Shown here in pieces: positions 2,657-35,683 of a stretch of 41,508 nt of DNA. Both the position numbers and the translations under genes were made by a program. A model generated the notes under the pieces. The model was not told where the DNA came from and did not search any database. It was given only the letters and a program-made list of their open reading frames with translations. This stretch comes from Nitrospinaceae bacterium (GTDB lineage: Bacteria; Nitrospinota; Nitrospinia; Nitrospinales; VA-1): contig CP070799.1 in the NCBI GenBank assembly GCA_020343535.1, forward strand, positions 1,782,601 to 1,824,108, written 5' to 3'. Every line of letters begins with the position of its first letter. Position 1 is the first letter of the stretch.

Positions 2657-3505
2657 TCAGGGCATGCTGAGGAGAAGCCAGCCCGCGAGCCCCTTCTGGC
2701 CGTTGCGTTCGCGGTTGCCACCGTTCCACACCGCCACCGCCATCGGCGATGCGCCCTTCAACTGGACGTCGGCGTTGTCCGGGGTTTTGAGATCCCGCCT
2801 GAACACCACCCGCCAGCGATTGTCCTTCCAGACCCCGCGCCCCATGACGTTCTGCTCCTCTTGCGTCGTCAGGGTGCTGAAGCCTTCGGCGTTCAGGTCT
2901 TCCACCGGCGAGCCGCGCTTCGAGGGCTGCACCGTCGGCAGGCCGGAAACCGAACCGGAGCGCACGTGCTTCCCCGGCTCATCTCCTGCCAGGTCTGTCT
3001 GCCACATAGCGCGCCACTGCCAGACATTGACCGGGTCCTCCGCCCCGCCCATGGTAATGGGCGGCAATCCGCGTCCCGGGTGCAGGGGAAACATCAGCGC
3101 CGCCTGGTCGGTGTAATTGGCCGACGGACCGTACTGGAAATCGAGGCTGTCGTCCTCCCATTCCAGGCGCAGGGCCAGAGTGGAGGCGTTCCGCACCGCG
3201 CGGATCTCCACCTCCTTGATCGAAGGGTCCGGCCATTTCGGATTGGTGATCATCTGCGGACCCAGCTCGACGCGGACGGCGGCCGGCCCGCCGGCGGCGG
3301 TCCACTGCGGCGCGTCGGGATCGAGGGGCACCTCGCCCTCGACCCTCTGGACCAGCACTCGCGGCCCGCAACTTTCATCCTCCAAGCAGCTCTCGACGCC
3401 GGGACCGCAGGCGGCGATGGTCAGCAGCGACGCAAGGGCCGCGAGGCCGCCCACTGGACACACTCTCAAGATAGCTAGCATATCTATAGGAAACATGGAT
3501 CGCAT
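2657..3505 (-). CDS. Ethylbenzene dehydrogenase gamma (EbdC)/NxrC-like heme-b binding protein, probable lipoprotein
   Basis: LRLEWED, DQAALMFP, PPITMG, PVNVWQW, AEGFSTLT, WRVVFRR and AVAVWNG..RERNGQK match the DMSO-reductase-family heme-b subunit. Lipobox-like TIAAC. Confidence 0.85.
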   Translation of the reverse strand: MRSMFPIDMLAILRVCPVGGLAALASLLTIAACGPGVESCLEDESCGPRVLVQRVEGEVPLDPDAPQWTAAGGPAAVRVELGPQMITNPKWPDPSIKEVEIRAVRNASTLALRLEWEDDSLDFQYGPSANYTDQAALMFPLHPGRGLPPITMGGAEDPVNVWQWRAMWQTDLAGDEPGKHVRSGSVSGLPTVQPSKRGSPVEDLNAEGFSTLTTQEEQNVMGRGVWKDNRWRVVFRRDLKTPDNADVQLKGASPMAVAVWNGGNRERNGQKGLAGWLLLSMP

Positions 3506-12283: not shown

Positions 12284-12904
12284 CAACCCCTACTTAAGCA
12301 AACCATCACCAAGTTCAGCACGTTAGGCCCCCTCTTCGGCAAGGCGGCTAGCGCCCCTCCCGGCCATGGAGACTTTCTCGGCCCGTTCCCCCCGCGGAAA
12401 TTATTTTCGATGATCATAATGCCTGCGCCGTAAATGCATATTTTCCGCAAATTATAACGCGTGACAACTCCCAGCCCGTACCATGCGCGGGTGGCCTTTG
12501 ATCCAATACCACTTGCGATCCTGTAGACGGATGCGGTGGTTCCATCCGAGGGGAGACGGGGGTCCCTTGCGTTGCCGGGTCCATTTGTGACCCGCAGGAT
12601 GGGTTTTGCGACGAAACGCCTGCGCCCCGGGATGCGGGTGAAGTGTGCGCGCCTGGGGCAGGTTGCCCGAAGGGCCCAATGCAGTATGCCCCCTTTTCAG
12701 GATCCAGCCGGGGGAGGGAACGCGGTTCCCTTGTGAGCACCCCATCGGGAGCAAAATTGCAATGCCAGGGAAATTATGGTTAACTAACGGCGCCCGGGGC
12801 CGCCCGCCCCGCCCTGATCCACAAAAAGCATTGTCAGAGATCGTGGCCAGGCCCGACCCATAGACATGCCGCTCCTTAGGCGGCGGGCTAAAAAGGACGC
12901 CCCG

Positions 12905-13582
12905 TTGAAAATATCCGTCGTCATTCCTACACTAAATGAGGCCAAGGCGTTGCCCGAAAGCCTGAAAGCGGTGCATTGCCACCGGCCGCACGAGGTGATC
13001 GTCGCCGATGGCGGCAGCGATGACGGAACTCAGGACATCGCCCGCCGGGCGGGCTGCCGCGTGGTTTGTTCGCCCCCCGGACGCGCGGCGCAAATGAACG
13101 CCGGCGCGCTCGCGGCCAGCGGCGAGGTGGTGCTGTTCCTGCATGCCGACAGCCGAGTGAGCGAAAAATGTTTCACCAAGATGGCCCAGGCCATGAACCG
13201 TGACGACCGGGTGGGCGGTGCGTTTTCCCTCTCCATCGAATCGGACCTTTGGTCGTTGCGGCTAATCTCCACCCTCGCCACGCTCCGGTCGCGTTACCTG
13301 CACCTGGTGTACGGCGATCAGGCCATTTTCGTGCGGGCGCGCGCCTTTCACGAACTGGGCGGCTTTTCCCCGCTTCCCATCTGCGAGGATCTGGACTTTT
13401 TCCGCCGCCTGAAAAATCATGGCCCCGTCGTCCTGCTGCGCGAAAAAACCGTCACCTCCGCGCGGCGCTGGCGGGCCGAGGGCGTCTTCTTCACCACGGC
13501 CCGGAACATCGCCATTGCGTCATTGTTTCTCCTCGGATGTTCGCCAAAAATACTCAGCCGCTGGTACCTCGTCATCCGCTAG
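12905..13582 (+). CDS. Glycosyltransferase family 2 (TIGR04283-like)
   Basis: ISVVIPTLNE, DGGSDD, GRAAQMNAGA, LFLHAD, YGDQAIF, EDLDF, TSARRW. TTG at 12905 follows AAAAGGA; the track start is 12866. Confidence 0.9.
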   Translation: MKISVVIPTLNEAKALPESLKAVHCHRPHEVIVADGGSDDGTQDIARRAGCRVVCSPPGRAAQMNAGALAASGEVVLFLHADSRVSEKCFTKMAQAMNRDDRVGGAFSLSIESDLWSLRLISTLATLRSRYLHLVYGDQAIFVRARAFHELGGFSPLPICEDLDFFRRLKNHGPVVLLREKTVTSARRWRAEGVFFTTARNIAIASLFLLGCSPKILSRWYLVIR

Positions 13583-13654
13583 GTTTTCCAAAAACCCCCA
13601 CGAACAATGGCCCGGCGGCCAGCATTGCCATCGTTGCGTTAACCGTTAAAACCC

Positions 13655-13683
13655 TTGAAACATTATGGTCCAGTCCCTATAAT
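13655..13683 (+). promoter_or_regulatory. Sigma70-type promoter TTGAAA-N17-TATAAT
   Basis: -35 at 13655-13660, exact 17-nt spacer, -10 at 13678-13683, upstream of the CYCYC gene. Confidence 0.75.
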
Positions 13684-13735
13684 CGATAGGAAAAGAACCC
13701 CTGTTCACCTCAAAAACATGCGGACATTACCGCCC

Positions 13736-14197
13736 ATGGGCAAGAAAAAAACCGGCAACAACAAATCGAGAAAAAGCTCCCGGCGGATGTTGGCAGGTTT
13801 CGTCGCCGGCATCGTCGTGGTGCTTTCCGGGGTATACGTCGCCACCAAACCCCCGGTGGTGCCGGTGGCCCCGGCCACGGGCGACCTCATCGAAATACGG
13901 CCCGTCCTTTCTCCGGCGCTGTTCACCGGCAAGGTAGCGCAGGCCTACAAGGTTGCCGCGGAAATCCCCAAAGTCCTCGACGCGCAATTCTGTTATTGCT
14001 ACTGCAAGAAAGAGAAGGGGCACAAGAACCTGCTGACCTGCTTCACCAGCCGCCACGGCTCCAAGTGCGAAACCTGCATCAACGAGGCCCTATATGCGCA
14101 CGAGCTGTACAAGCAGGGCAAGACCATCGACGAGATCGTGGTGGCGGTGGACCGCAAGTTCTACCGCCCTTACCGGAAATCCACTTCCTCCCTATAA
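13736..14197 (+). CDS. PCYCGC/CYCXC-motif family protein with an N-terminal membrane anchor
   Basis: AY..A..IP.VL...FCYCYC....GH..LL.CF...HG..C..C..EA. Basic N-terminus followed by a TM segment. Start ATG 13736 (or 13718). Confidence 0.85.
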   Translation: MGKKKTGNNKSRKSSRRMLAGFVAGIVVVLSGVYVATKPPVVPVAPATGDLIEIRPVLSPALFTGKVAQAYKVAAEIPKVLDAQFCYCYCKKEKGHKNLLTCFTSRHGSKCETCINEALYAHELYKQGKTIDEIVVAVDRKFYRPYRKSTSSL

Positions 14198-14212
14198 GAT
14201 AACAACGGACCC

Positions 14213-14791
14213 ATGACCACCCAGACGGCGGAAAGCACCCTCGAGAGCAAACCGGTCAGCATCTTCATTCCCTACGCGTTGCTGGTGACCGCCCTGCTGT
14301 CGATTTTCATTATTTCCATCAACAAGGTCGAGCTCGAACCATTCAAGGTCGAGTACCCGGCCGAGGCCTTTCTTGCCCCCGGTTTCGAACTGCCCTCGTT
14401 GAACGGCGGCAAGGTGAACCTCCTGGACTACCGGGGCAAGGTGGTGTTCATCAACTTCTGGGCAACTTGGTGCGGCACCTGCGAAGTGGAAATGCCCTCG
14501 ATGGAAAAACTGTACCAGCGCTTCAAGGACGACGGTTTCGAGATGCTCACCATCAGCATCGACAAGGATCAAAGCCTCATCGAGCCGTTCATGAATAAAT
14601 ACGGGCTGACCTTCCCGGTCCTCCTCGACCCGGAGAGCACAGTGGCCAAGAAGGATTATAAAACCACCGGCGTGCCGGAGACCTTCATCGTCAACCGCGA
14701 GGGGATCATCGTCCACAAGGCCATCGGCCCGCGGCAGTGGGACAGCGATGAAAACATGGCGGCGTTCGCGCAGCTGGTCCTGGGGTCCTGA
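14213..14791 (+). CDS. TlpA/ResA-like thiol-disulfide oxidoreductase, membrane-anchored
   Basis: RGKVVFINFWATWCGTC..EMP, GVPETFIV, N-terminal TM. Confidence 0.93.
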   Translation: MTTQTAESTLESKPVSIFIPYALLVTALLSIFIISINKVELEPFKVEYPAEAFLAPGFELPSLNGGKVNLLDYRGKVVFINFWATWCGTCEVEMPSMEKLYQRFKDDGFEMLTISIDKDQSLIEPFMNKYGLTFPVLLDPESTVAKKDYKTTGVPETFIVNREGIIVHKAIGPRQWDSDENMAAFAQLVLGS

Positions 14792-14792
14792 A

Positions 14793-15194
14793 ATGATTCC
14801 GACCAAGCTGCTTCCCGCGTTCGCCTTATCGATCCTCGCCTCGCTCGCCCTGGCTTCGCTGGCGGCAGCCCACGGCGGTGCGCATAAAAAGCCGGAAGAG
14901 GCGCAAACCGCGCCCGCCCCGGCGGCGGACGCCCCCTCCCCCTACGCCCTTGAACCCACCCCCGAAGAAACGCCGCTGGACGACGACCTGCTTTCGCCCT
15001 TCGCGCGCGGCGTCATGGAAGACCACGAGATGGAAGAAGGCATGGGCAACGCCATGGACGGCCACGCCATGCCCGAGGTGGAACTTTCCCATCATACGCT
15101 CGTCTCACCATCGAAACCCGGTTACCCCTGGGCGGTGGCGGTGACGGCGCTTTCGGGCTTGTTGTTCGGGGTCCTGGCCATAAGGCGCAGGTGA
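14793..15194 (+). CDS. Exported His/Met-rich acidic protein with a C-terminal TM anchor, 133 aa
   Basis: Signal peptide ending AAA/HGGAH; MEDHEMEEGMGNAMDGHAM; C-terminal TM plus IRRR. ATG begins one base after the tlpA stop. Confidence 0.75.
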   Translation: MIPTKLLPAFALSILASLALASLAAAHGGAHKKPEEAQTAPAPAADAPSPYALEPTPEETPLDDDLLSPFARGVMEDHEMEEGMGNAMDGHAMPEVELSHHTLVSPSKPGYPWAVAVTALSGLLFGVLAIRRR

Positions 15195-15215
15195 CTCTCC
15201 GGAAAGGGAGATCCC

Positions 15216-16229
15216 ATGGCAAATAAATTTTCAGAGATCCTCAAGGAACGGCTGGGCGCGGGCGAACTCGATTACGAGATCGGCGAACACGCCAACACCA
15301 TTCCCTATTCGCTGGGCGGCATGACACTCGCCTCCCTGGGCCTCTTGATCCTCACCGGGATGCTGCTCGCCCAGTTCTACATTCCGGGGCCAGAGAGCGC
15401 CAACCAGAGCCTGCATTACCTGAGCGACCAGGTGTTTCTCGGCTGGTACCTGCGCGGCGTCCATTTCTGGGCCGCCGAAGTGCTGACGGTGACCCTGATC
15501 CTGCACATGATGCGGGTCTTCTGGACCGCGTCCTACAAGAAGCCGCGCGAAGTCAACTGGCTGGTGGGCGTCGTTCTGCTGCTCCTGATGGTCGGCCTGC
15601 TGTTCACCGGCACCGTGATCAAATGGGATCAGGAGGCCTACGAGGCGCTCGCGCATTTCACCTGGGTGGGCGAAAAACTCGGCATCCTGGGTCTACCGCT
15701 CACCGAACGATTCGCCGAGGGAGTGCCGATGGTGAGCCGAGTGTACATGTGGCACATCTCCCTGCTTCCCATCGTGACCCTGCCCGTGCTCGGGCTGCAC
15801 CTTTTCTACATCCGCCACCACAAGCTCTCCCCGCTGCCGGAATCCCCCGCGGGAGGCAGGACGATCCGCTTCACCGATCACCTGCTGTATCTTCAGAAAG
15901 CCGGCGCCGGCGTCGTCACCCTGATCTGCCTTCTCGCCCTAGTGATCGCCCCGCCGCTCGGCCAAGCGCCCGTGCATGGGCTGGAAGTCACCAAGCCGCC
16001 GTGGCAATTCGTCTGGATCTACGCCCTGGAAAACCTGTGGGTGCCCTCGCTGATCGTGGCGCCATTGCTCATCGTTTTGGCTCTCGTTCTGGTTCCGTTC
16101 GTGGACCGCAGCGAAAAGCGGCACTGGCGCGACCGCCCGGTGGCGGTGGCGGTCCTGGCGCTGACGCTTCTCCTGATGGGCGGCCTCATCATCTGGGGCA
16201 AAGTGACCACCATGACGCACTCCATGTGA
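15216..16229 (+). CDS. Cytochrome b/b6-family protein (fused b6 + subunit IV-like)
   Basis: YSLGG, LTG..LA..Y, RGVH..H..RVF, KPRE.NW..G, WDQ, four heme His, and KPPWQF at the PEWY position. Confidence 0.92.
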   Translation: MANKFSEILKERLGAGELDYEIGEHANTIPYSLGGMTLASLGLLILTGMLLAQFYIPGPESANQSLHYLSDQVFLGWYLRGVHFWAAEVLTVTLILHMMRVFWTASYKKPREVNWLVGVVLLLLMVGLLFTGTVIKWDQEAYEALAHFTWVGEKLGILGLPLTERFAEGVPMVSRVYMWHISLLPIVTLPVLGLHLFYIRHHKLSPLPESPAGGRTIRFTDHLLYLQKAGAGVVTLICLLALVIAPPLGQAPVHGLEVTKPPWQFVWIYALENLWVPSLIVAPLLIVLALVLVPFVDRSEKRHWRDRPVAVAVLALTLLLMGGLIIWGKVTTMTHSM

Positions 16230-16236
16230 CCCCCGA

Positions 16237-16500
16237 ATGCTCCCGGCACTCACTCTCGAAATGCTCAGCAAGGCCGACTGTTCGCTGTGCGACACCGCTA
16301 AAGCCACTCTGGAGAAAGTGCTGAGGGATTACCCCGGCGTCTCACTGACCATGACCGACATCGAAACCGACGCCGGCCTGTTCGAGCAATATAAAGAAAA
16401 AATTCCGGTGCTGAGAATCAACGGGGAGGACCGGTTTGTCTACAAAGTGCATGAAACCACGCTACGCAAAAACCTCGACCAGCTGATGAAAGACGCCTAG
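16237..16500 (+). CDS. Glutaredoxin-like protein (DUF836 type)
   Basis: CSLC motif, DI..D..L...Y...IPVL.ING. Confidence 0.85.
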   Translation: MLPALTLEMLSKADCSLCDTAKATLEKVLRDYPGVSLTMTDIETDAGLFEQYKEKIPVLRINGEDRFVYKVHETTLRKNLDQLMKDA

Positions 16501-16568
16501 GCGGGTATTTTCGGGTATAATACCTGGCCGGGGGTTCCCGAAATGACCCAACAGGAAGGAATCGACCG

Positions 16569-16874
16569 ATGGTGGAGAAAAAATCGTTGAACGCAGAGGA
16601 ACTGGCGGAACAACTCGCGGCCCAGGCCCCGGAATGGAAGACGGGGAAAAACGAAAAGGGCGTTCCCTACATCGAACGGGTGAAACACGCGGCCAAATAT
16701 ATGGAGGGCATCGAATTCGTCCGCCGGGTTGCCGAACTGGCCGAGGAAAACAACCACCACCCCGACATTTTCATCCACTACAAGCGCATCACCGTGCGCT
16801 ACTGGACCCACAGCGCAAGCGGCGTTACCCTGGCGGACGTGCAAATGGCAAACAAGGTCGACACCCTTTTCTAA
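16569..16874 (+). CDS. Pterin-4-alpha-carbinolamine dehydratase
   Basis: FV..VA.LAE..NHHPDI, THS..GVT..D..MA. RBS GGAAGG. Confidence 0.92.
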   Translation: MVEKKSLNAEELAEQLAAQAPEWKTGKNEKGVPYIERVKHAAKYMEGIEFVRRVAELAEENNHHPDIFIHYKRITVRYWTHSASGVTLADVQMANKVDTLF

Positions 16875-16938
16875 GCGGCGGGACAAAGGCTTCCCGCTCG
16901 CGGTCAATCCCGAAAACCCTAACTCCCTTCCACCTGCC

Positions 16939-19446
16939 ATGGCGCTGGGTTCCCGATTATTCAGGATTTACGACCGGCTGATCTTCCGTTATTCGAAAGC
17001 CTGGATCGCCGCCATCGTACTCATCGCCGCGGGCCTGGCTTTCAAAGTGCCTGAGTTCAAGCTCGACGCCTCGGCCGATTCGCTGGTGCTGGAAAACGAC
17101 GAAGCCCTCGCCTACAACCGCAAGATCAACAAACAGTACGGCACCGAAGATTTTCTCATCGTTACCTACAAACCGTTCGACGGCCTGCTTTCCCCACGCT
17201 CGATCGAGGGCCTGAAGGGCCTGAAGGAAGAGCTGTCCCGGCTGGAACGCATCAAGTCGGTGGTCAGCATCCTCGACGTCCCGCTGTTCAACAGCCCGCG
17301 TGTCAAGCTCTCGGAGCTTAGCGAAAACAACCGCACCCTGGAAACTCCCGGGGTGGACCTGGATCTCGCCCTCCGGGAATTCACCGAAAGCCCGATCTAC
17401 CGCAAGCTGCTCGCCAGCCCCGACGGCAAGACCACCGCCCTGCTCGCTCTGTACAAGCGCAACGAAAAATATTACTCCCTGCTCGAGCGGCGCAACGACC
17501 TGCGGGAAAAACGGCGCCACCAGGACCTTTCCCCCCAGGAGGAGAAAGAGCTTGCGGAGGTTTCACACGAGTTCAAGCAGTACCTCGCCGAAGTCCTCGC
17601 GACACAAAAGCGGGAGGTGGACACGGTGCGCGCCATCCTCGACAAATACCGCGACCGGGCCGATATCTTCCTCGGCGGCATCCCCATGATCGCCACCGAC
17701 ATGATCGACTTCATCCGCAGCGACCTGTCGACCTTCGGCATCGCCGTGTTCGCCCTCATGGTGCTGGTCATGTGGCTGTTCTTCCACGGAGTGCGCTGGG
17801 TGGCGCTGCCGATCGTCACCACCGGCGTGTCGGTATGGGTGGTCATCGGCTGTCTGGGTTGGCTGGACTGGCGGGCGACGGTCATCTCCTCCAATTTCGT
17901 CTCGATGCTCATCATCATCACCATCTCGCTGACGGTTCACCTCATCGTCCGCTACGGCGAGTTGTACGCCGATGGTCCCGAGCGCGAAGCGCCCGCCCTA
18001 GTGGAAGACACCGTACGGCACATGTTCCAGCCTTGCTTTTACACCGCCATCACCACCATCGTCGCCTTCACCTCGCTGATGGTCAGCGGCATTCGCCCGG
18101 TCATCGATTTCGGCTGGATCATGACGCTCGGTATCGCCATCGCCTTCACCCTGTCCTTCATCCTCTTCCCGGCCCTGCTCCGGCCGATGCGGCCTCGCGC
18201 CTCGGTCACTGCCCACGATTTCACGCGCCGCATCACCCGGGCCATCGCCGCCTTCGCCCTGCGGCACCGGGGCGGCCTCATCACCGGCTTCACCCTATTC
18301 TCCGCGCTGGCCGTGTTCGGCATCTTCCAACTGCGGGTGGATAACCGCTTTATCGATTATTTCAAGGAAAGCACCGAGATCTACCAGGGCATGAGCGTCA
18401 TCGATAAATCGCTCGGCGGAACCACGCCCCTCGACCTGGTGTTGGAGGCCGATCCGGCGTTTTTCGAATACCTTGAGGAAATCGAAAAGGAAAAAGCCCT
18501 GGAGGACCCGTTCGACGACCCCTTCGCGTCGAAAGAGCCGGTGGAGGAAAATTACTGGTTTCATCCGGACAAGCTACTGTGGGTGGAAAAGATCCACGAT
18601 CACCTGGAAGCCATGCCACAGATCGGCAAAGTGCTCTCCATCGCCACCACCCTCAAGGTGGTGCGCCTGATCAACGGGGGCCGCGTGCCCGACGATTACG
18701 ACCTCGCCATCTACCGCAAGTTGCTGCCCGAAGAGGCGCGCAAGAACTTTCTCGATCCGTATCTATCGAAAGACGCGAACCAGATCCGCCTCACCCTGCG
18801 CATCGAGGAAACCGAGCCCACGCTGAACCGCGGCGAGCTGATCGAGAAAATCAACCGCTACCTCATCGACGAAATGAACGTCGCCCCGGAGCGCATCCAC
18901 TTCACCGGCATGGCGGTGCTCTACAACAACATGTTGCACAGCCTGTACCGCTCGCAGATCCTCACTCTCGGGATGGTGCTGGCGGCGATCTGCGTCATGT
19001 TCGTGATCCTGTTCCGAAACATCTCCATCGCATTGCTGGCCACATTGCCCAACGTGTTTTCCGCTGTGAGCGTGCTCGGGATCATGGGCTGGCTCGACAT
19101 CCCGCTCGACATGATGACCATCACCATCGCCGCCATCACCATCGGCATCGCGGTGGACGACACCATCCACTACGTGCACCGTTTTCAGGAAGAGTTTCCC
19201 AGGTTCTCGAACTACCAGGAAACGGTCCTGCACTGCCACGGAACCATCGGCCGGGCGATGTATTACACCTCCATCACCATCACCGTCGGATTTTCCATCC
19301 TGGTGCTGTCGAACTTTATCCCCACCATCTACTTCGGCCTGCTGACGGGCACGGCCATGATTTTAGCTATTTTAGGCGATCTTATTCTATTGCCCCTCCT
19401 GATCGTTTTGTTCAAGCCTCTGGGGCCGGAAACGGCGCGGGCCTAG
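16939..19446 (+). CDS. MMPL/RND-superfamily exporter (lipid-type)
   Basis: Two TM bundles with large periplasmic loops, TAITTIVAF.SL, ITIGIAVDDTIH. Start placed at ATG 16939 because the track start overlaps PCD. Confidence 0.9.
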   Translation: MALGSRLFRIYDRLIFRYSKAWIAAIVLIAAGLAFKVPEFKLDASADSLVLENDEALAYNRKINKQYGTEDFLIVTYKPFDGLLSPRSIEGLKGLKEELSRLERIKSVVSILDVPLFNSPRVKLSELSENNRTLETPGVDLDLALREFTESPIYRKLLASPDGKTTALLALYKRNEKYYSLLERRNDLREKRRHQDLSPQEEKELAEVSHEFKQYLAEVLATQKREVDTVRAILDKYRDRADIFLGGIPMIATDMIDFIRSDLSTFGIAVFALMVLVMWLFFHGVRWVALPIVTTGVSVWVVIGCLGWLDWRATVISSNFVSMLIIITISLTVHLIVRYGELYADGPEREAPALVEDTVRHMFQPCFYTAITTIVAFTSLMVSGIRPVIDFGWIMTLGIAIAFTLSFILFPALLRPMRPRASVTAHDFTRRITRAIAAFALRHRGGLITGFTLFSALAVFGIFQLRVDNRFIDYFKESTEIYQGMSVIDKSLGGTTPLDLVLEADPAFFEYLEEIEKEKALEDPFDDPFASKEPVEENYWFHPDKLLWVEKIHDHLEAMPQIGKVLSIATTLKVVRLINGGRVPDDYDLAIYRKLLPEEARKNFLDPYLSKDANQIRLTLRIEETEPTLNRGELIEKINRYLIDEMNVAPERIHFTGMAVLYNNMLHSLYRSQILTLGMVLAAICVMFVILFRNISIALLATLPNVFSAVSVLGIMGWLDIPLDMMTITIAAITIGIAVDDTIHYVHRFQEEFPRFSNYQETVLHCHGTIGRAMYYTSITITVGFSILVLSNFIPTIYFGLLTGTAMILAILGDLILLPLLIVLFKPLGPETARA

Positions 19447-33686: not shown

Positions 33687-35423
33687 TTAGCTAAGTTGGA
33701 GGAACTCGTTGACTAGCTTTAGATCTTCGCCTCGGTGAATTTCCAGCCATCCTTGATGGATCTCCATGAAATGGACGCGAAAACCGCGGTCGATCATCTC
33801 CTGGATGATGTCCGTGAAGTTCAGGCGCGACACATCGTCGGCCTCGTGGAACCGTCCCTGGAAGTTCTCGGTGCAGTCCTGATAGGTCGCCATCAGCTGT
33901 TCGGCGCCAGTGCGCGAGAACCGGGCGAGCCCGATGAATTCGTGCGTGGCCGTCTCCGGCGGCAAATTGGCGCCAATTCGCTCGACGAGGTGCTCTCCGG
34001 CGAAGCTGATCCTGCGGCGGCTCGGCCGGTGCTTGCGCTTGCTGACGATGAAATCCAGCGCCTTTCCGCCTTCATACTTGTGATACTGGGTGGTGTTGTC
34101 GGCCACCAGCACGATGTCCTCGCGGCAGTCGAGGAGCTTGCCGATGATGTGATCCTCAAGAAGGATATCGGCGTAAAGCATCAGAAAACCGTTGTGCATT
34201 TTATCGCGCGCCACCATCAGGCTGTGCATCATCGAGCCGTTCTCATAATCCTTGTTCTCCAGGATGGCCACCCCCTCGGCGCGCATTTGATCGCTGGCAT
34301 AGCCCGCCACCACGGTGATGTCGTTCAGGTGGTTGGTCGCGAGAGAGGCGACCTGCCGGTCGAGCAGCGTGCGCCCGGCGATATCCAGCATCGCCTTGGG
34401 CCGGCCGTTCAGCAGGGGTTTCAGCACTTCGTCCTCGCCGGCGGCGGGGATGATGACCGCAATGTTGCCCGCCTGGCCTTCGCGCTGGTCCTTTTCCTTG
34501 ACGTCGAGAAAACCCACCGCGCGGAAGATATCCCGCACCGGGGCGCACAGAGGATCGGCCTCCAGCGACCGCTGGTTGAGCAGAATGGCCCGGCTGACCT
34601 CGACCATCGACTGGTACGCCGCGCGCAGAAGATGGTTGGCGTAGATCAGCACGCGGAACCCCTTTTGGGCCAGCTCGTCCTCGGTGAGGTGGTTGTAGGT
34701 GGTGGGCACGCAAACGAGCGGCTTGTCTAGACCGAGCTCCGTGAGAAGATCGCCGTAAGCCTCGGCAAAGCGGAAAAGCTCGTCCGGATTCTTGGATTTC
34801 GAGTGAATCATGATGCCGTCGACACCGGCCTGCAGGTAGGTGCGCGCCCGGGAAAGCGCATCTTCCAGGGGAAATCCAGCAATGAAACTCTCGATTCTCG
34901 CGATTATGAGAAAATCGCCCGTCAACTGGACCGCCTTGCCGCGGCGGATTTTTTGCGCGAACACCTCCGGGTCCTGCAGGGTCTGCGAAACGCCGGCTTC
35001 CAGGCTGTTCCGCTTCGGGAACACCTTGTCCTCAATGATCACCGCCGAAACGCCGGCGCGCTCCAGCTTCGACACCATGTATTCGAAGTTGTTCGCGTCG
35101 CCGCCGGTGTCGCCGTCGACAATCATCGGCTTTTCGGTGACCGCCAGAATTTCCTGGATCGTCGTCAGGCGCGAGTCGAACCCCACAACTTCGATATCGG
35201 GATGGCCCTTCGACGCCGAGTCCGTCAGGCTGCTTTCCCAGAGGGCGTCGAACTCGCGGATCACCGGCTGGCCCTTATCCTCGCCCTCGATGCGGGCGCT
35301 GCCGCCAACGATGCCGCTCAAGCCGTTGTGCGCCTCGATGACGCGGATCAGCCGGTTTTCTCGGAGCAAGGCTTTGAGCTTGCCGCGTCTTGCTTCGGGC
35401 AGAATGTTGTTTAGAAGGGTCAT
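33687..35423 (-). CDS. pepM: Phosphoenolpyruvate mutase fused to a C-terminal nucleotidyltransferase (LicC/PntC-like) domain
   Basis: EAHNGLS, DGDTGG, PepM signature EDKVFPKRNS (EDKx5NS), ARIES, VPTTY, IYANH.LRA. C-terminal IPAAG..RPKAML, YADIL, HEFIGL, GWLEI. Start ATG 35423 overlaps the upstream stop (ATGA). Confidence 0.9.
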   Translation of the reverse strand: MTLLNNILPEARRGKLKALLRENRLIRVIEAHNGLSGIVGGSARIEGEDKGQPVIREFDALWESSLTDSASKGHPDIEVVGFDSRLTTIQEILAVTEKPMIVDGDTGGDANNFEYMVSKLERAGVSAVIIEDKVFPKRNSLEAGVSQTLQDPEVFAQKIRRGKAVQLTGDFLIIARIESFIAGFPLEDALSRARTYLQAGVDGIMIHSKSKNPDELFRFAEAYGDLLTELGLDKPLVCVPTTYNHLTEDELAQKGFRVLIYANHLLRAAYQSMVEVSRAILLNQRSLEADPLCAPVRDIFRAVGFLDVKEKDQREGQAGNIAVIIPAAGEDEVLKPLLNGRPKAMLDIAGRTLLDRQVASLATNHLNDITVVAGYASDQMRAEGVAILENKDYENGSMMHSLMVARDKMHNGFLMLYADILLEDHIIGKLLDCREDIVLVADNTTQYHKYEGGKALDFIVSKRKHRPSRRRISFAGEHLVERIGANLPPETATHEFIGLARFSRTGAEQLMATYQDCTENFQGRFHEADDVSRLNFTDIIQEMIDRGFRVHFMEIHQGWLEIHRGEDLKLVNEFLQLS

Positions 35424-35683
35424 GTTTTGACGCTCAATCGCTCTCGCACCCAGGAAGGGAGATAAACCGCCTCCAGATCGAACCGGGAAAGCGCTTCCAG
35501 GATGATATTGACTTGCTCGGCGGGGTGCAACCGCCGGTCGAGAAGGATAAGGTCCTGCCCTCTCAACCGGCAATAACCGCCGCGCGTGGGAAACTCATCG
35601 TCGCCCAGGTTGCCCGCCTCAATGGCGATGGACAACCGGGCGGCGGTGTTTTTCAGATCCTCCAACTGGTGTTCTGGGTCCAT
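35420..35683 (-). CDS. Small hypothetical protein (GGYCRLRG motif)
   Basis: 87-aa ORF with protein-like composition, translationally coupled to pepM. Confidence 0.75.
   Translation of the reverse strand: MDPEHQLEDLKNTAARLSIAIEAGNLGDDEFPTRGGYCRLRGQDLILLDRRLHPAEQVNIILEALSRFDLEAVYLPSWVRERLSVKT

Follow-up and report, generated by a model that had tools for sequence, protein, structure and literature searches.

A conserved five-gene operon of Nitrospinales places a Rieske-less cytochrome b among envelope thiol and histidine-rich proteins

Introduction

Among the nitrite oxidisers of the ocean, the Nitrospinota are the chief group. A 41,508-nucleotide stretch of DNA from a Nitrospinaceae bacterium (assembly GCA_020343535.1, contig CP070799.1), referred to here as the window, carries an operon in which a cytochrome b gene lies among genes for membrane-anchored thiol proteins and an exported His/Met-rich protein, raising the question of what a cytochrome b does in this company. 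A preliminary description of the sequence took the operon to be a self-contained system, in which an orphan cytochrome b may conduct electrons across the membrane for a periplasmic metal-binding module, and knew of no described system with this gene set. None was found in the literature searched, nor was any paper assigning a function to the operon. The analysis presented here points to an undescribed wiring of extra-membrane copper or disulfide chemistry to the electron-transport chain, and either outcome, if true, would be a new coupling of envelope Cys/metal chemistry to the quinone pool. The source genome is a Nitrospinota MAG that is 86% complete and in 349 pieces, so that absences from it are weak evidence.

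Operon layout and gene products

The operon consists of five tightly packed plus-strand genes, g1 to g5, separated by gaps of 15, 1, 21 and 7 nt, and lies downstream of a near-consensus sigma-70-like promoter (TTGAAA-N17-TATAAT, 13655..13683, + strand), assigned by consensus match alone, at 11 of 12 positions. The open reading frames and the promoter match agree with the preliminary description, as do profile matches with its identities for g1, g2, g4 and g5, while g3 falls in no family. Promoter-like sites number 3 in the interval 12500-17500, compared with 1.3 +/- 1.0 in shuffled sequence, and one RNA-library contig (13583-13794) spans the promoter. A search for inverted repeats in 13560-13760 found none. 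As had been noted, no Rieske, c-type cytochrome or DsbD/CcdA gene is found within the five-gene operon.

The first gene, g1 (13736..14197, + strand), encodes a membrane-anchored CYCXC/PCYCGC protein (NF041379, 124.4 bits against a cut-off of 90; PF13798, 43.2 bits against 25). Alternative starts are present at 13718 (ATG) and 13655 (TTG); because the TTG overlaps the -35 hexamer, the ATG at 13736, which starts the 153-residue version of g1 (P0271), is the likelier start. The protein has an N-in transmembrane helix and a helical periplasmic domain with a CYCYC motif, two His, one Cys and a CxxC motif, and the residues C92, C94, C96, C108, C117, C120, H102 and H113 are invariant in 27 aligned rows; its AF2 model has a pLDDT of 79. 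Some CYCXC relatives are selenoproteins, in which UxxC takes the place of the CxxC of g1 (PMC9312934, PMC13188914).

The product of g2 (14213..14791, + strand) is a membrane-anchored, TlpA/ResA-like thioredoxin-fold protein (AhpC-TSA, 103 bits; Redoxin, 95 bits), which scores below the equivalog cut-offs for ResA (124 against 170), TlpA (80 against 230) and DsbE (56 against 123). Its active site, WCGTC, is invariant, with both Cys present in 36 of 36 rows. The last gene, g5 (16237..16500, + strand), encodes a glutaredoxin-like DUF836 protein with a CSLC motif (PF05768, 56.5 bits against 26), which lacks a signal peptide and is presumably cytoplasmic. It is followed after a 68-nt gap, containing a TATAAT-like hexamer, by a gene for pterin-4a-carbinolamine dehydratase (16569..16874, + strand), which is found 3' of g5 in 27 of 30 and 6 of 6 further loci; whether this gene is part of the system is uncertain.

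Conservation across the Nitrospinales

The preliminary description made its proposal depend on conservation of gene order in related genomes. The order g1-g2-g4 is kept in all 30 loci of one set and all 6 further loci, 36 loci from four families of the order, which is far above chance. An open reading frame with the build of g3 is present in 30/30 loci, and g5 in 29/30 and 6/6, being undetected in locus L014. The identity of g2 across the order is 63-92%, and the operon is retained in the Nitrospinales as widely as core respiratory genes.

The operon is not self-contained in the sense first proposed: it joins two older gene pairs, which occur apart elsewhere. The CYCXC and TlpA-like pair (g1 and g2) occurs across the Nitrospinota, and a pair consisting of a small N-terminal-His protein and a cytochrome b (g3 and g4) is found across phyla, sometimes fused. 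The genome also holds, outside the operon, a DsbD_TM-family protein with its own TlpA paralogue.

A cytochrome b without a dedicated Rieske gene

The product of g4 (15216..16229, + strand) is an unsplit (b6 plus subunit-IV-like) dihaem cytochrome b (PF00033, 105 bits against a gathering cut-off of 27.2), a seven-helix protein carrying both haem sites. The haem ligands H83, H97, H180 and H195 are invariant in alignments of 30 rows (A1) and of 40 rows (A4), and residues 22-205 are about 40% identical to the b6 of solved b6f complexes. Like the cytochrome b of b6f and bc1 complexes, g4 has the b6-type haem-His spacing and a fused subunit-IV-like C-terminal half with a P-x-W motif. Unlike these, it lacks its own genes for a Rieske protein and a cytochrome c and forms a separate clade, its pair partner is a small His-rich bitopic protein, and several sequence features are altered. 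The b6 segment YCLGG aligns with YSLGG in g4, such that the haem-cn Cys35 of b6 is replaced by Ser and the CxGG motif is absent. The Qo motif is PPWQ, within a subfamily consensus P-P-W-x with a variable fourth residue, and departs from P-[EDV]-W-[YF]. The cd-helix, which in solved bc complexes helps build the Rieske docking surface, reads WDQEAYEALAH in g4 versus WDQ(I/V)GYWAVKIV in b6. On the periplasmic side lie H147 (invariant in the subfamily and, like E143, in A4), H335 and M337 (invariant in 36 rows of the order) and H67 (also invariant in the order), while the single invariant Cys, Cys238, is in a membrane helix and no periplasmic-side Cys is conserved.

In an unrooted tree (quick search, LG+G4), a branch of length 0.51 with SH-aLRT 100 parts g4 and 48 further rows from 24 rows, of which 12 are paralogues linked to a Rieske gene and 12 are further distant representatives. 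The preliminary description had named clustering with functional bc complexes as contrary to its proposal; g4 instead branches apart from the Rieske-linked proteins. It is a member of a well-separated subfamily of Rieske-less cytochromes b, for which a species-representative genome collection has at least 509 loci. The bc-type Rieske gene is single-copy in 15 of the 16 genomes with 10 or fewer contigs, and sits together with genes for subunit IV and an octahaem cytochrome c in 7/7 loci examined from the order, with b6 between them in 6/7 (BLAST). The sole bc-type Rieske of the complete relatives is in a separate Rieske/split-b6/octahaem-c operon, and g4 is without a dedicated Rieske gene. Among subfamily loci from other phyla, an adjacent Rieske gene is present in 1/80. 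The absence of a Rieske partner of its own is thereby supported; as to the label ‘orphan’, the gene is already in print as a second, unsplit cytochrome b copy (Lücker 2013).

The best named NCBIfam match of g4 is ExtP (NF040969), of a selenite/tellurite reduction operon, at 160.5 bits against a cut-off of 290. Like ExtP, g4 is of the cytochrome b/b6 type but is encoded away from any canonical Rieske/cytochrome b operon; unlike g4, ExtP is short, its profile having 205 positions. Clade G' and subfamilies H and K of Dibrova 2017 are further cases outside canonical operons, and that work records clades of cytochrome b whose function is unknown or obscure. For none of these systems did the literature searched describe CYCXC, TlpA-like or CopC-like partners.

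Small His-bearing partners and copper neighbourhoods

The product of g3 (14793..15194, + strand) is an exported, bitopic protein. It combines a signal peptide and a predicted HGG(A/G)H at the mature N-terminus with an acidic linker, a stretch rich in His and Met, and a transmembrane helix that is conserved at the C-terminus. It is largely low-complexity, and a family search gave no match; H91, G110 and A114 are invariant and H27 nearly so. In other phyla, a bitopic protein with ‘AH[GS]’ after the signal peptide adjoins the cytochrome b in at least 43 of 80 loci. In family f9, the partner gene and the start of the cytochrome b gene overlap in 4/4 loci, and in three proteins (P0134, P0140 and P0145) the partner domain follows the C-terminus of the cytochrome b as a fusion (blastp, 1e-10 to 1e-16). 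The partners of g4 relatives consist of a signal peptide, a domain rich in beta structure and an anchor at the C-terminus, and in partner cluster 2 a His directly follows the cleavage site in 21/24, with Asp instead in 3/24. In this they recall CopC/CopD and YcnI, copper-binding envelope proteins with an N-terminal His; the cluster-2 profile has CopC as its top PDB match, at a non-significant E of 0.06, and no Pfam CopC or YcnI match was found. Homology between g3 and the partners in other phyla is undetectable, the likeness being one of position and build.

Copper genes are frequent around the subfamily in other phyla. A P1B ATPase is near the cytochrome b in 28/80 loci, and a P1B ATPase, cupredoxin or multicopper oxidase lies within 4.5 kb in 42/80. 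The five ATPases tested all exceed the cut-off of the NCBI copper-translocating model (592-628 bits against 397), and one locus (L113) carries a RicR/CsoR-like repressor. Members with copper-gene neighbours include those of Actinomycetota and Chloroflexota, and in a Chloroflexota locus (L080) a PCYCGC protein is found 1.9 kb from the cytochrome b. By contrast, no copper gene adjoins the operon in any Nitrospinales locus examined. The copper genes beside the relatives in other phyla fit the suggestion of copper handling or reduction, given as an example in the preliminary description.

A proposed role in copper reduction and handling

The reading that we favour, tentatively and at somewhat less than an even chance, is that the operon encodes a haem-b-driven module for copper reduction and handling. 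The two gene pairs, together with g5, would have merged into a single envelope redox unit. As a small bitopic subunit, with its mature N-terminal His and His/Met-rich segment on the periplasmic side, g3 would capture Cu(II); electrons from quinol or from the cytoplasmic side would pass through haems bH and bL of g4 to the periplasmic face, reducing Cu(II) to Cu(I), which would be received or handled by the Cys-rich g1. The g1 cysteines would be kept reduced by g2, as TlpA does for ScoI and CoxB, with g5 serving as an accessory cytoplasmic thiol protein. We infer copper as the substrate, the direction of electron flow and the physical contacts among the proteins; the copper link comes from relatives in other phyla that are 38-47% identical.

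As in TlpA-ScoI-CoxB maturation, the TlpA-like g2 is encoded beside a Cys-rich membrane-anchored protein, although g1 is not a Sco protein. Like the bacterial cupric reductases CcoG and CrpH (a PepSY_TM protein), g4 is a redox protein of the membrane and may be able to reduce Cu(II), but it has no FixG_C match, and no description of a cytochrome b-family cupric reductase was found in the literature searched. In the eukaryotic transmembrane haem-b metalloreductases Fre/NOX, STEAP and Dcytb, two b haems move electrons across the membrane and reduce Cu(II) or Fe(III) outside; the likeness of the proposed scheme to these is in logic only, the folds being unrelated and no sequence relation being claimed. 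If the readings hold, the Rieske-less subfamily with copper neighbours offers a candidate haem-b cupric reductase in bacteria that can be put to the test, and homologues in culturable Streptomyces, Arthrobacter and Nocardioides make the readings testable.

Counted in favour of copper, besides the conservation, the haem ligands, the missing Rieske gene, the tree, and the copper neighbourhoods and small partners in other phyla, were the periplasmic-side His/Met residues of g4, H27 and H91 of g3, the Chloroflexota PCYCGC link, and the scarcity of the usual chaperones: PCuAC and FixG_C/CcoG were not found in the MAG itself, and clear Sco matches are present in only 3/31 genomes of the order. Counted against were the sub-threshold COX1 match of the MAG (29 bits), which leaves haem-copper oxidase biogenesis as no obvious need, the absence of copper genes beside the Nitrospinales operon, the non-significant CopC match, the lack of homology between g3 and the other-phyla partners, the N-terminal Asp in some of these, the variable CxxC of g5, and the presence of CYCXC without a g4-type cytochrome b in family f5. 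In two loci, L128 and L130, moreover, a multihaem cytochrome c gene is found upstream of the g4 relative, with no copper gene there, suggesting that the module may serve various acceptors.

Alternative readings

The main rival, which is possible though on balance doubtful, is that the operon substitutes for DsbB/VKOR, with electrons from periplasmic Cys passing via g2 and/or g1 to haem b or a bound quinone of g4 and on to the respiratory chain. The order has DsbA-like proteins (PF01323 and Thioredoxin_4, each 31/31 genomes) yet neither DsbB nor VKOR by profile search (each 0/31, with 30 of the genomes at least 95% complete), and two of the long DsbA-like proteins, with CPFC and a single N-terminal transmembrane segment, are thus without a fused oxidase domain. 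This is a gap across the whole order, for which the operon is a concrete candidate filler. Across the class, VKOR is confined to family f7 (3/3) and DsbB to one f7 genome (G108), and CYCXC is above cut-off in 0/3 genomes of that family (one weak match, 74.8 bits); this complementary distribution is one phylogenetic contrast only. In family f5, a dihaem cytochrome c with PDZ domains is flanked by CYCXC and a TlpA-like gene, a thiol-haem link with a high-potential acceptor, and the order-wide operon with its highly conserved g2 would fit a housekeeping role. However, g2 is of the TlpA/ResA class, in which the known proteins are reductants, g5 would be without a role, and g4 has no conserved periplasmic Cys. 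The g3-g4 pair also occurs beside copper genes in Actinomycetota, of which the sole control, Corynebacterium, has VKOR, and no operon protein matches DsbB or VKOR profiles. A bolder and rather doubtful form holds the operon to be the missing disulfide-generating machine of Nitrospinota, in which CYCXC and the TlpA-like protein would deliver electrons from periplasmic Cys to a Rieske-less cytochrome b (to the dihaem cytochrome c in f5) as a third, haem-based solution beside DsbB and VKOR. In a related bold reading, protein-bound copper on the small His-rich subunit may replace the Rieske cluster in a new quinol oxidoreductase.

Improbable, in our judgement, is a reductive transmembrane thiol conduit in the role of DsbD/CcdA, in which electrons would pass from g5 to haem bH and, aided by the membrane potential, to haem bL, then via g1/g2 to a periplasmic Cys client, without any metal. 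The layout fits such a route, with a CxxC protein in the cytoplasm, a dihaem protein in the membrane and TlpA-like and CxxC proteins in the periplasm. It recalls both DsbA-DsbB/VKOR and DsbD(CcdA)-CcmG/ResA-CcmH, which likewise pair a thioredoxin-fold protein of the periplasm with another CxxC protein and an electron carrier in the membrane; unlike in these pathways, the membrane component is a dihaem cytochrome b. In the MAG, DsbD_TM occurs in a single protein, which is fused to an FGE-sulfatase and has a TlpA paralogue of its own. With CcmH, g1 shares a small size, a helical build, a CxxC motif and a membrane anchor, and among natural structures the periplasmic domain of CcmH (2hl7_A) matches it best (Z 4.9, rmsd 3.3 over 67 residues), a lead only; this score is within chance for helical domains, and g1 has no match to the CcmH profile (PF03918 at E <= 0.01). 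A genuine CcmH for cytochrome c maturation is encoded separately in the genome, which would leave g1/g2 with a different client. Against the conduit, the CxxC of g5 is kept in only 70-95% of 35 rows and one locus of the order lacks a detectable g5, the g3-g4 pair occurs in other phyla without g1, g2 and g5, and we know of no precedent for electron transfer from a dithiol through haem b to a disulfide.

Quite improbable is that g4 works in an ordinary complex III, with the Rieske protein and the cytochrome c supplied by the split-b6 operon and the thiol genes either aiding assembly or being no more than syntenic neighbours. It retains both haems and a P-P-W recognisable as a Qo motif, high conservation would fit a core energy function, and nitrite oxidisers need reverse electron flow, in a source that also lists the second cytochrome b copy (Lücker 2013). 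The missing Rieske gene, the Rieske-less clade, the altered cd-helix, the Gln in place of Tyr/Phe at the fourth Qo position, and the coupling of a small His-rich subunit to the cytochrome b in each lineage examined all argue against it. Very improbable is that g1/g2 act on some other soft metal or metalloid, be it arsenic, mercury or selenium, with g4 as redox partner. A TIGR04283 arsenosugar-biosynthesis glycosyltransferase gene (244 bits against 182) sits upstream of g1, with such genes also upstream in L135 and L136, but in just these 2 of 6 wide loci. Beside a CYCXC-TlpA pair, L159 has a divergent ArsS-like radical-SAM/DUF3641 gene, and in L156 MerR-MerC-Trx-MerF genes lie upstream of CYCXC, at a distance of 3 kb; a search of the MAG itself gave no DUF3641. 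The ExtP match and the selenoprotein CYCXC relatives also fit, but the former is below its cut-off, and none of these genes is recurrent around g3-g4 in the 80 other-phyla loci.

Organization and expression of the operon

The operon is real and is not an ordinary gene set. In the literature searched, no functional description of this combination of genes was found. As the preliminary description had it, five closely packed genes with gaps of 1-21 nt lie on the forward strand: g1 ends at 14197, and is followed by g2 (14213-14791), g3 (14793-15194), g4 (15216-16229) and g5 (16237-16500), with intervening gaps of 15, 1, 21 and 7 nt. The TTGAAA-N17-TATAAT promoter noted there is present at 13655-13683 and matches 11 of 12 consensus positions; in 5 kb, three promoter-like sites were found, compared with 1.3 +/- 1.0 in shuffled sequence. 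Candidate g1 starts are TTG 13655, ATG 13718 and ATG 13736, the last being where the stored 153-aa protein (P0271) begins. Because TTG 13655 coincides with the -35 hexamer, either ATG is the likelier start. No inverted repeat was found at the promoter, and no Rfam match within 12800-17000. Three studies provide RNA-library contigs (depth 2-6) that match the window at 99-100% identity, overlap parts of all five genes and span the g2/g3 and g4/g5 junctions. They are compatible with transcription of the operon, and neither a single transcript nor the transcript start follows from them.

The g1 product belongs to the PCYCGC family (PF13798, 43 bits) and passes the NCBIfam model for CYCXC family (seleno)proteins (124 bits, cut-off 90). 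Two reviews include OS_HP4/CYCXC among selenoprotein families, with the motif UxxC (PMC9312934, PMC13188914), which marks the CxxC of g1 as redox-active; a paper on PCYCGC says only that its function is unknown. The AF2 model of g1 contains one transmembrane helix and a helical domain (pLDDT 79). A Foldseek search of the PDB with this model returned nothing (best E 0.7), a wider structural search (VIA) gave low Z scores only (a designed protein at 6.2 and CcmH at 4.9), a PDB profile search gave no matches, and the ESM Atlas gave no usable match. As modelled, g1 appears to have no convincing counterpart among solved structures. The g2 product is a TlpA/ResA-like redoxin (active site WCGTC) that falls under every equivalog cut-off, the His/Met-rich bitopic g3 product matched nothing in the family scan, g4 encodes a cytochrome b/b6 (PF00033, 105 bits) whose best named match is ExtP (160 bits, cut-off 290), and g5 encodes a glutaredoxin-like DUF836 protein (56.5 bits).

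Conservation in Nitrospinota

The assembly, nominally one contig, contains 348 runs of exactly 100 N and is a metagenome-assembled genome (MAG) made by concatenating 349 pieces, of which the window is one complete piece with N spacers at either side. As the MAG is fragmented and its estimated completeness is 86%, absences were checked in relatives where relevant. All named homologues are from Nitrospinota. Orthologues of g4 in the four families of the order Nitrospinales (f1-f4) are 62-71% identical over the full length, rising to 90% within the same genus, and g4 matches of any kind at E <= 1e-20 occur in 116 of the 120 phylum-set genomes. The concern that gene order might not be conserved in relatives is not borne out: across 30 loci (+/-1.5 kb, own locus included), the order g1-g2-g4 is found in every one. 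The g5 gene was detected in 29 of them, g3 was detected by tblastn in 26, and all 30 contain an ORF of g3 build in the interval from g2 to g4; the operon is also intact in all six further, wider loci examined (families f3 and f4). Invariant across the order are six Cys and two His in g1, both active-site Cys in g2, and nine His (including H67, H147 and H335) plus M337 in g4; by b6 topology, H67, H147, H335 and M337 should be on the periplasmic face. The CxxC of g5 is less strictly conserved (70-95% of rows). A pterin-4a-carbinolamine dehydratase gene (16569-16874, +) lies just 3' of the operon, as in 27 of the 30 loci and all six wider ones.

A distinct cytochrome b subfamily and the Rieske question

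Among 1.84 billion representative proteins, relatives of g4 are 34-52% identical to it, and some of those aligned bear C-terminal extensions. All four haem-ligating His are conserved without exception in the alignment, where the cd-helix has the form KWDQE-x-EAL-x-H and the Qo motif the form KPPW-x. Compared with solved b6 structures, the haem-cn Cys is replaced by Ser in g4, and WDQ(I/V)GYWAVKIV by WDQEAYEALAH. In an unrooted quick-search tree of 73 rows, two sets of sequences are separated by a branch of SH-aLRT 100. One set comprises g4, ten of its orthologues from the order, three sequences from family f9 (another order), 28 representatives and seven sequences from the best 80 loci of the pattern scan described below; the other comprises twelve Rieske-linked Nitrospinota paralogues together with twelve other distant representatives.

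The preliminary description had proposed looking for a free Rieske partner elsewhere in the genome, and none dedicated to g4 was found. The MAG contains five Rieske-domain matches, none within the window, of which two are bc-type (CTHLGC/CPCHGS), both at contig ends (L123:4624-5131, -; L124:4980-5528, +). These two genes lie on short or truncated pieces, share 80% identity, and could represent a real duplication, a strain mixture or assembly collapse. With one of these copies as query (E <= 1e-10), exactly one bc-type Rieske match was found in 15 of the 16 f1-f4 genomes with <=10 contigs; the remaining genome (G024) has two, the second adjoining another cytochrome b paralogue. In seven loci of the order, the Rieske gene lies in an operon of oxidoreductase, Rieske, b6, subunit IV and octahaem cytochrome c genes, with the b6 gene seen by BLAST in six and a matching gap present in the seventh (L149). 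Such a bc-like operon with a split b6 was described in 2013 by Lücker et al. (PMC3578206), who beyond this mention only another copy of cytochrome b, unsplit and located elsewhere. The two MAG genes were rejected as free partners of g4, the relatives' copy being in the split-b6 operon and the MAG being fragmented there. Since the single bc-type Rieske gene of relatives sits in that operon, g4 is without a Rieske gene of its own. The protein could conceivably be shared between the two systems, as a complex III built on a borrowed Rieske would entail. No papers dealing with complex III in Nitrohelix were found.

Relatives of the cytochrome b in other phyla

The cd-helix pattern was used to scan a species-representative genome collection, and 509 loci were confirmed. 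The best 80 of them, which belong to Actinomycetota, Chloroflexota, Thermaceae, Armatimonadetes and Gemmatimonadales, are 38-47% identical to g4. Many of these contigs are short, and the following counts, from the best 80 of the 509 loci, are lower bounds. Routine flanking by Rieske genes, the alternative envisaged at the outset, is not what these loci contain, an adjacent Rieske gene being present in one of the 80 (L101). A P1B ATPase lies near the cytochrome b in at least 28 loci, and all five tested score 592-628 bits against TIGR01511, the copper-translocating model (cut-off 397); some carry HMA domains, and others an N-terminal cupredoxin and a C-terminal YHS domain. Examples of the latter are found in Streptomyces and Kitasatospora (L113:1671-4517, -; L094:7309-10494, -). 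A P1B ATPase, cupredoxin or multicopper oxidase occurs within 4.5 kb in at least 42 loci, OmpR-type response regulators in at least 12, histidine kinases in at least 11, and a CcdA-like membrane protein in at least 12; L113 also contains a RicR/CsoR-like repressor, and L080 a PCYCGC protein.

Directly beside the cytochrome b, in at least 43 of the 80 loci, is a bitopic protein with a signal peptide, an 'AH[GS]' motif and a C-terminal anchor. In Chloroflexota, one group of these partners (cluster 2; the His is present in 21 of 24 members) is encoded downstream of the cytochrome b; in Actinomycetota, another (cluster 5) is encoded upstream. Paired cytochrome b and bitopic genes occur, for example, in Streptomyces (L113), Arthrobacter (L107) and Nocardioides (L103). 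P0134, P0140 and P0145 are fusions of the cytochrome b with the cluster-2 domain, and three CopC entries are the top PDB matches of the cluster-2 profile, though not significantly so (E 0.06). By BLAST, neither g3 nor the helical C-terminal extensions of P0122-P0125 matched any of the neighbours in other phyla, and the likeness of g3 to these partners is one of position and build, with undetectable sequence similarity.

Two modules joined in Nitrospinales

In family f9, the cytochrome b is 46-52% identical to g4, and a g3-like gene of 111-121 aa overlaps its start in all four loci examined. In two of these (L127, L131), a TlpA-like and a TolC-like gene follow, with Met-rich proteins upstream and, in L131, YHS/TRASH proteins also upstream. 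Two f9 loci have a 663-674-aa multihaem cytochrome c directly upstream of the His protein and cytochrome b (L128:5326-7347, -; L130:5319-7307, -), that of L128 with 13 paired-CXXCH Pfam matches. CYCXC is above cut-off in 108 of the 120 phylum-set genomes, and in the loci examined outside the order it is never beside a g4-type cytochrome b. In f9 the gene directly after it is TlpA-like and 50-53% identical to g2 (L159 and L160 have both genes), and in f6 CYCXC stands alone. In f5 (L156:1559-8103, -; L157), CYCXC and TlpA-like genes flank the gene for a Met-rich dihaem cytochrome c of 527 aa that has two PDZ domains; about 3 kb upstream of the CYCXC gene in L156, on the same strand, is a MerR-MerC-thioredoxin-like-MerF set. 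Because the pairs g3 + g4 and CYCXC + TlpA-like occur apart outside the order, the five-gene operon is a Nitrospinales-specific union of these two pairs (g3 + g4, g1 + g2) with g5. Its characterization as 'self-contained' needs amending in this light.

Copper, thiol or quinol chemistry

We tentatively favour a copper-centred haem-b redox module as the function of the operon, a reading consistent with the copper genes around g4 relatives in other phyla and held at somewhat less than even confidence. None of the loci examined within the order has a copper gene next to the operon, and clear Sco matches (>= 58 bits) occur in three of 31 genomes; weaker matches, g2 orthologues among them, probably represent TlpA-like proteins rather than Sco. 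The MAG holds a CopA-type ATPase and a CopZ-like protein, its COX1 match is sub-threshold only, and PCuAC and FixG_C were not found in it at 86% completeness.

The main rival, which we regard as rather unlikely, is that the operon substitutes for DsbB/VKOR. DsbA-family proteins are present in all 31 genomes of the order, and DsbB and VKOR in none, 30 of these genomes being >=95% complete. Across the 120 genomes of the class, VKOR is confined to family f7 (3/3) and DsbB to a single f7 genome, f7 being the family without CYCXC above cut-off. This complementarity is striking but amounts to a single phylogenetic contrast involving one family. Two long DsbA-like proteins (CPFC) were considered as fusions with a DsbB/VKOR-like domain and rejected, each having a single N-terminal transmembrane segment. 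The remaining probability is divided among a reductive thiol conduit, a complex III with a borrowed Rieske protein, and handling of another soft metal. The sole DsbD_TM protein of the MAG has an N-terminal FGE-sulfatase (EgtB/SenA-like) fusion (L126:3379-5752; contig C1, ~398.4-400.8 kb) and is preceded by a second TlpA/ResA-like gene; a genuine CcmH is encoded elsewhere.

Other genes in the window and arsenic-related neighbours

The gene preceding g1 (12866-13582, +) encodes a TIGR04283 arsenosugar-biosynthesis glycosyltransferase, which is likewise encoded upstream in two other loci (L135, L136). In an f9 genome, the CYCXC-TlpA pair has a divergently oriented ArsS-like radical-SAM/DUF3641 gene next to it (L159:2147-3130, -); a search of the MAG itself for DUF3641 found none. 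At 2660-3505 (-), the window encodes a protein resembling the haem-b gamma subunit of type II DMSO reductases (TIGR03477, 134 bits, under the cut-off of 170), which may be an NxrC-like nitrite oxidoreductase subunit. A PEP mutase fused to a nucleotidyltransferase-like C-terminal part (33690-35573, -; TIGR02320, 333 bits, above the cut-off of 320) suggests a capacity for phosphonate biosynthesis.
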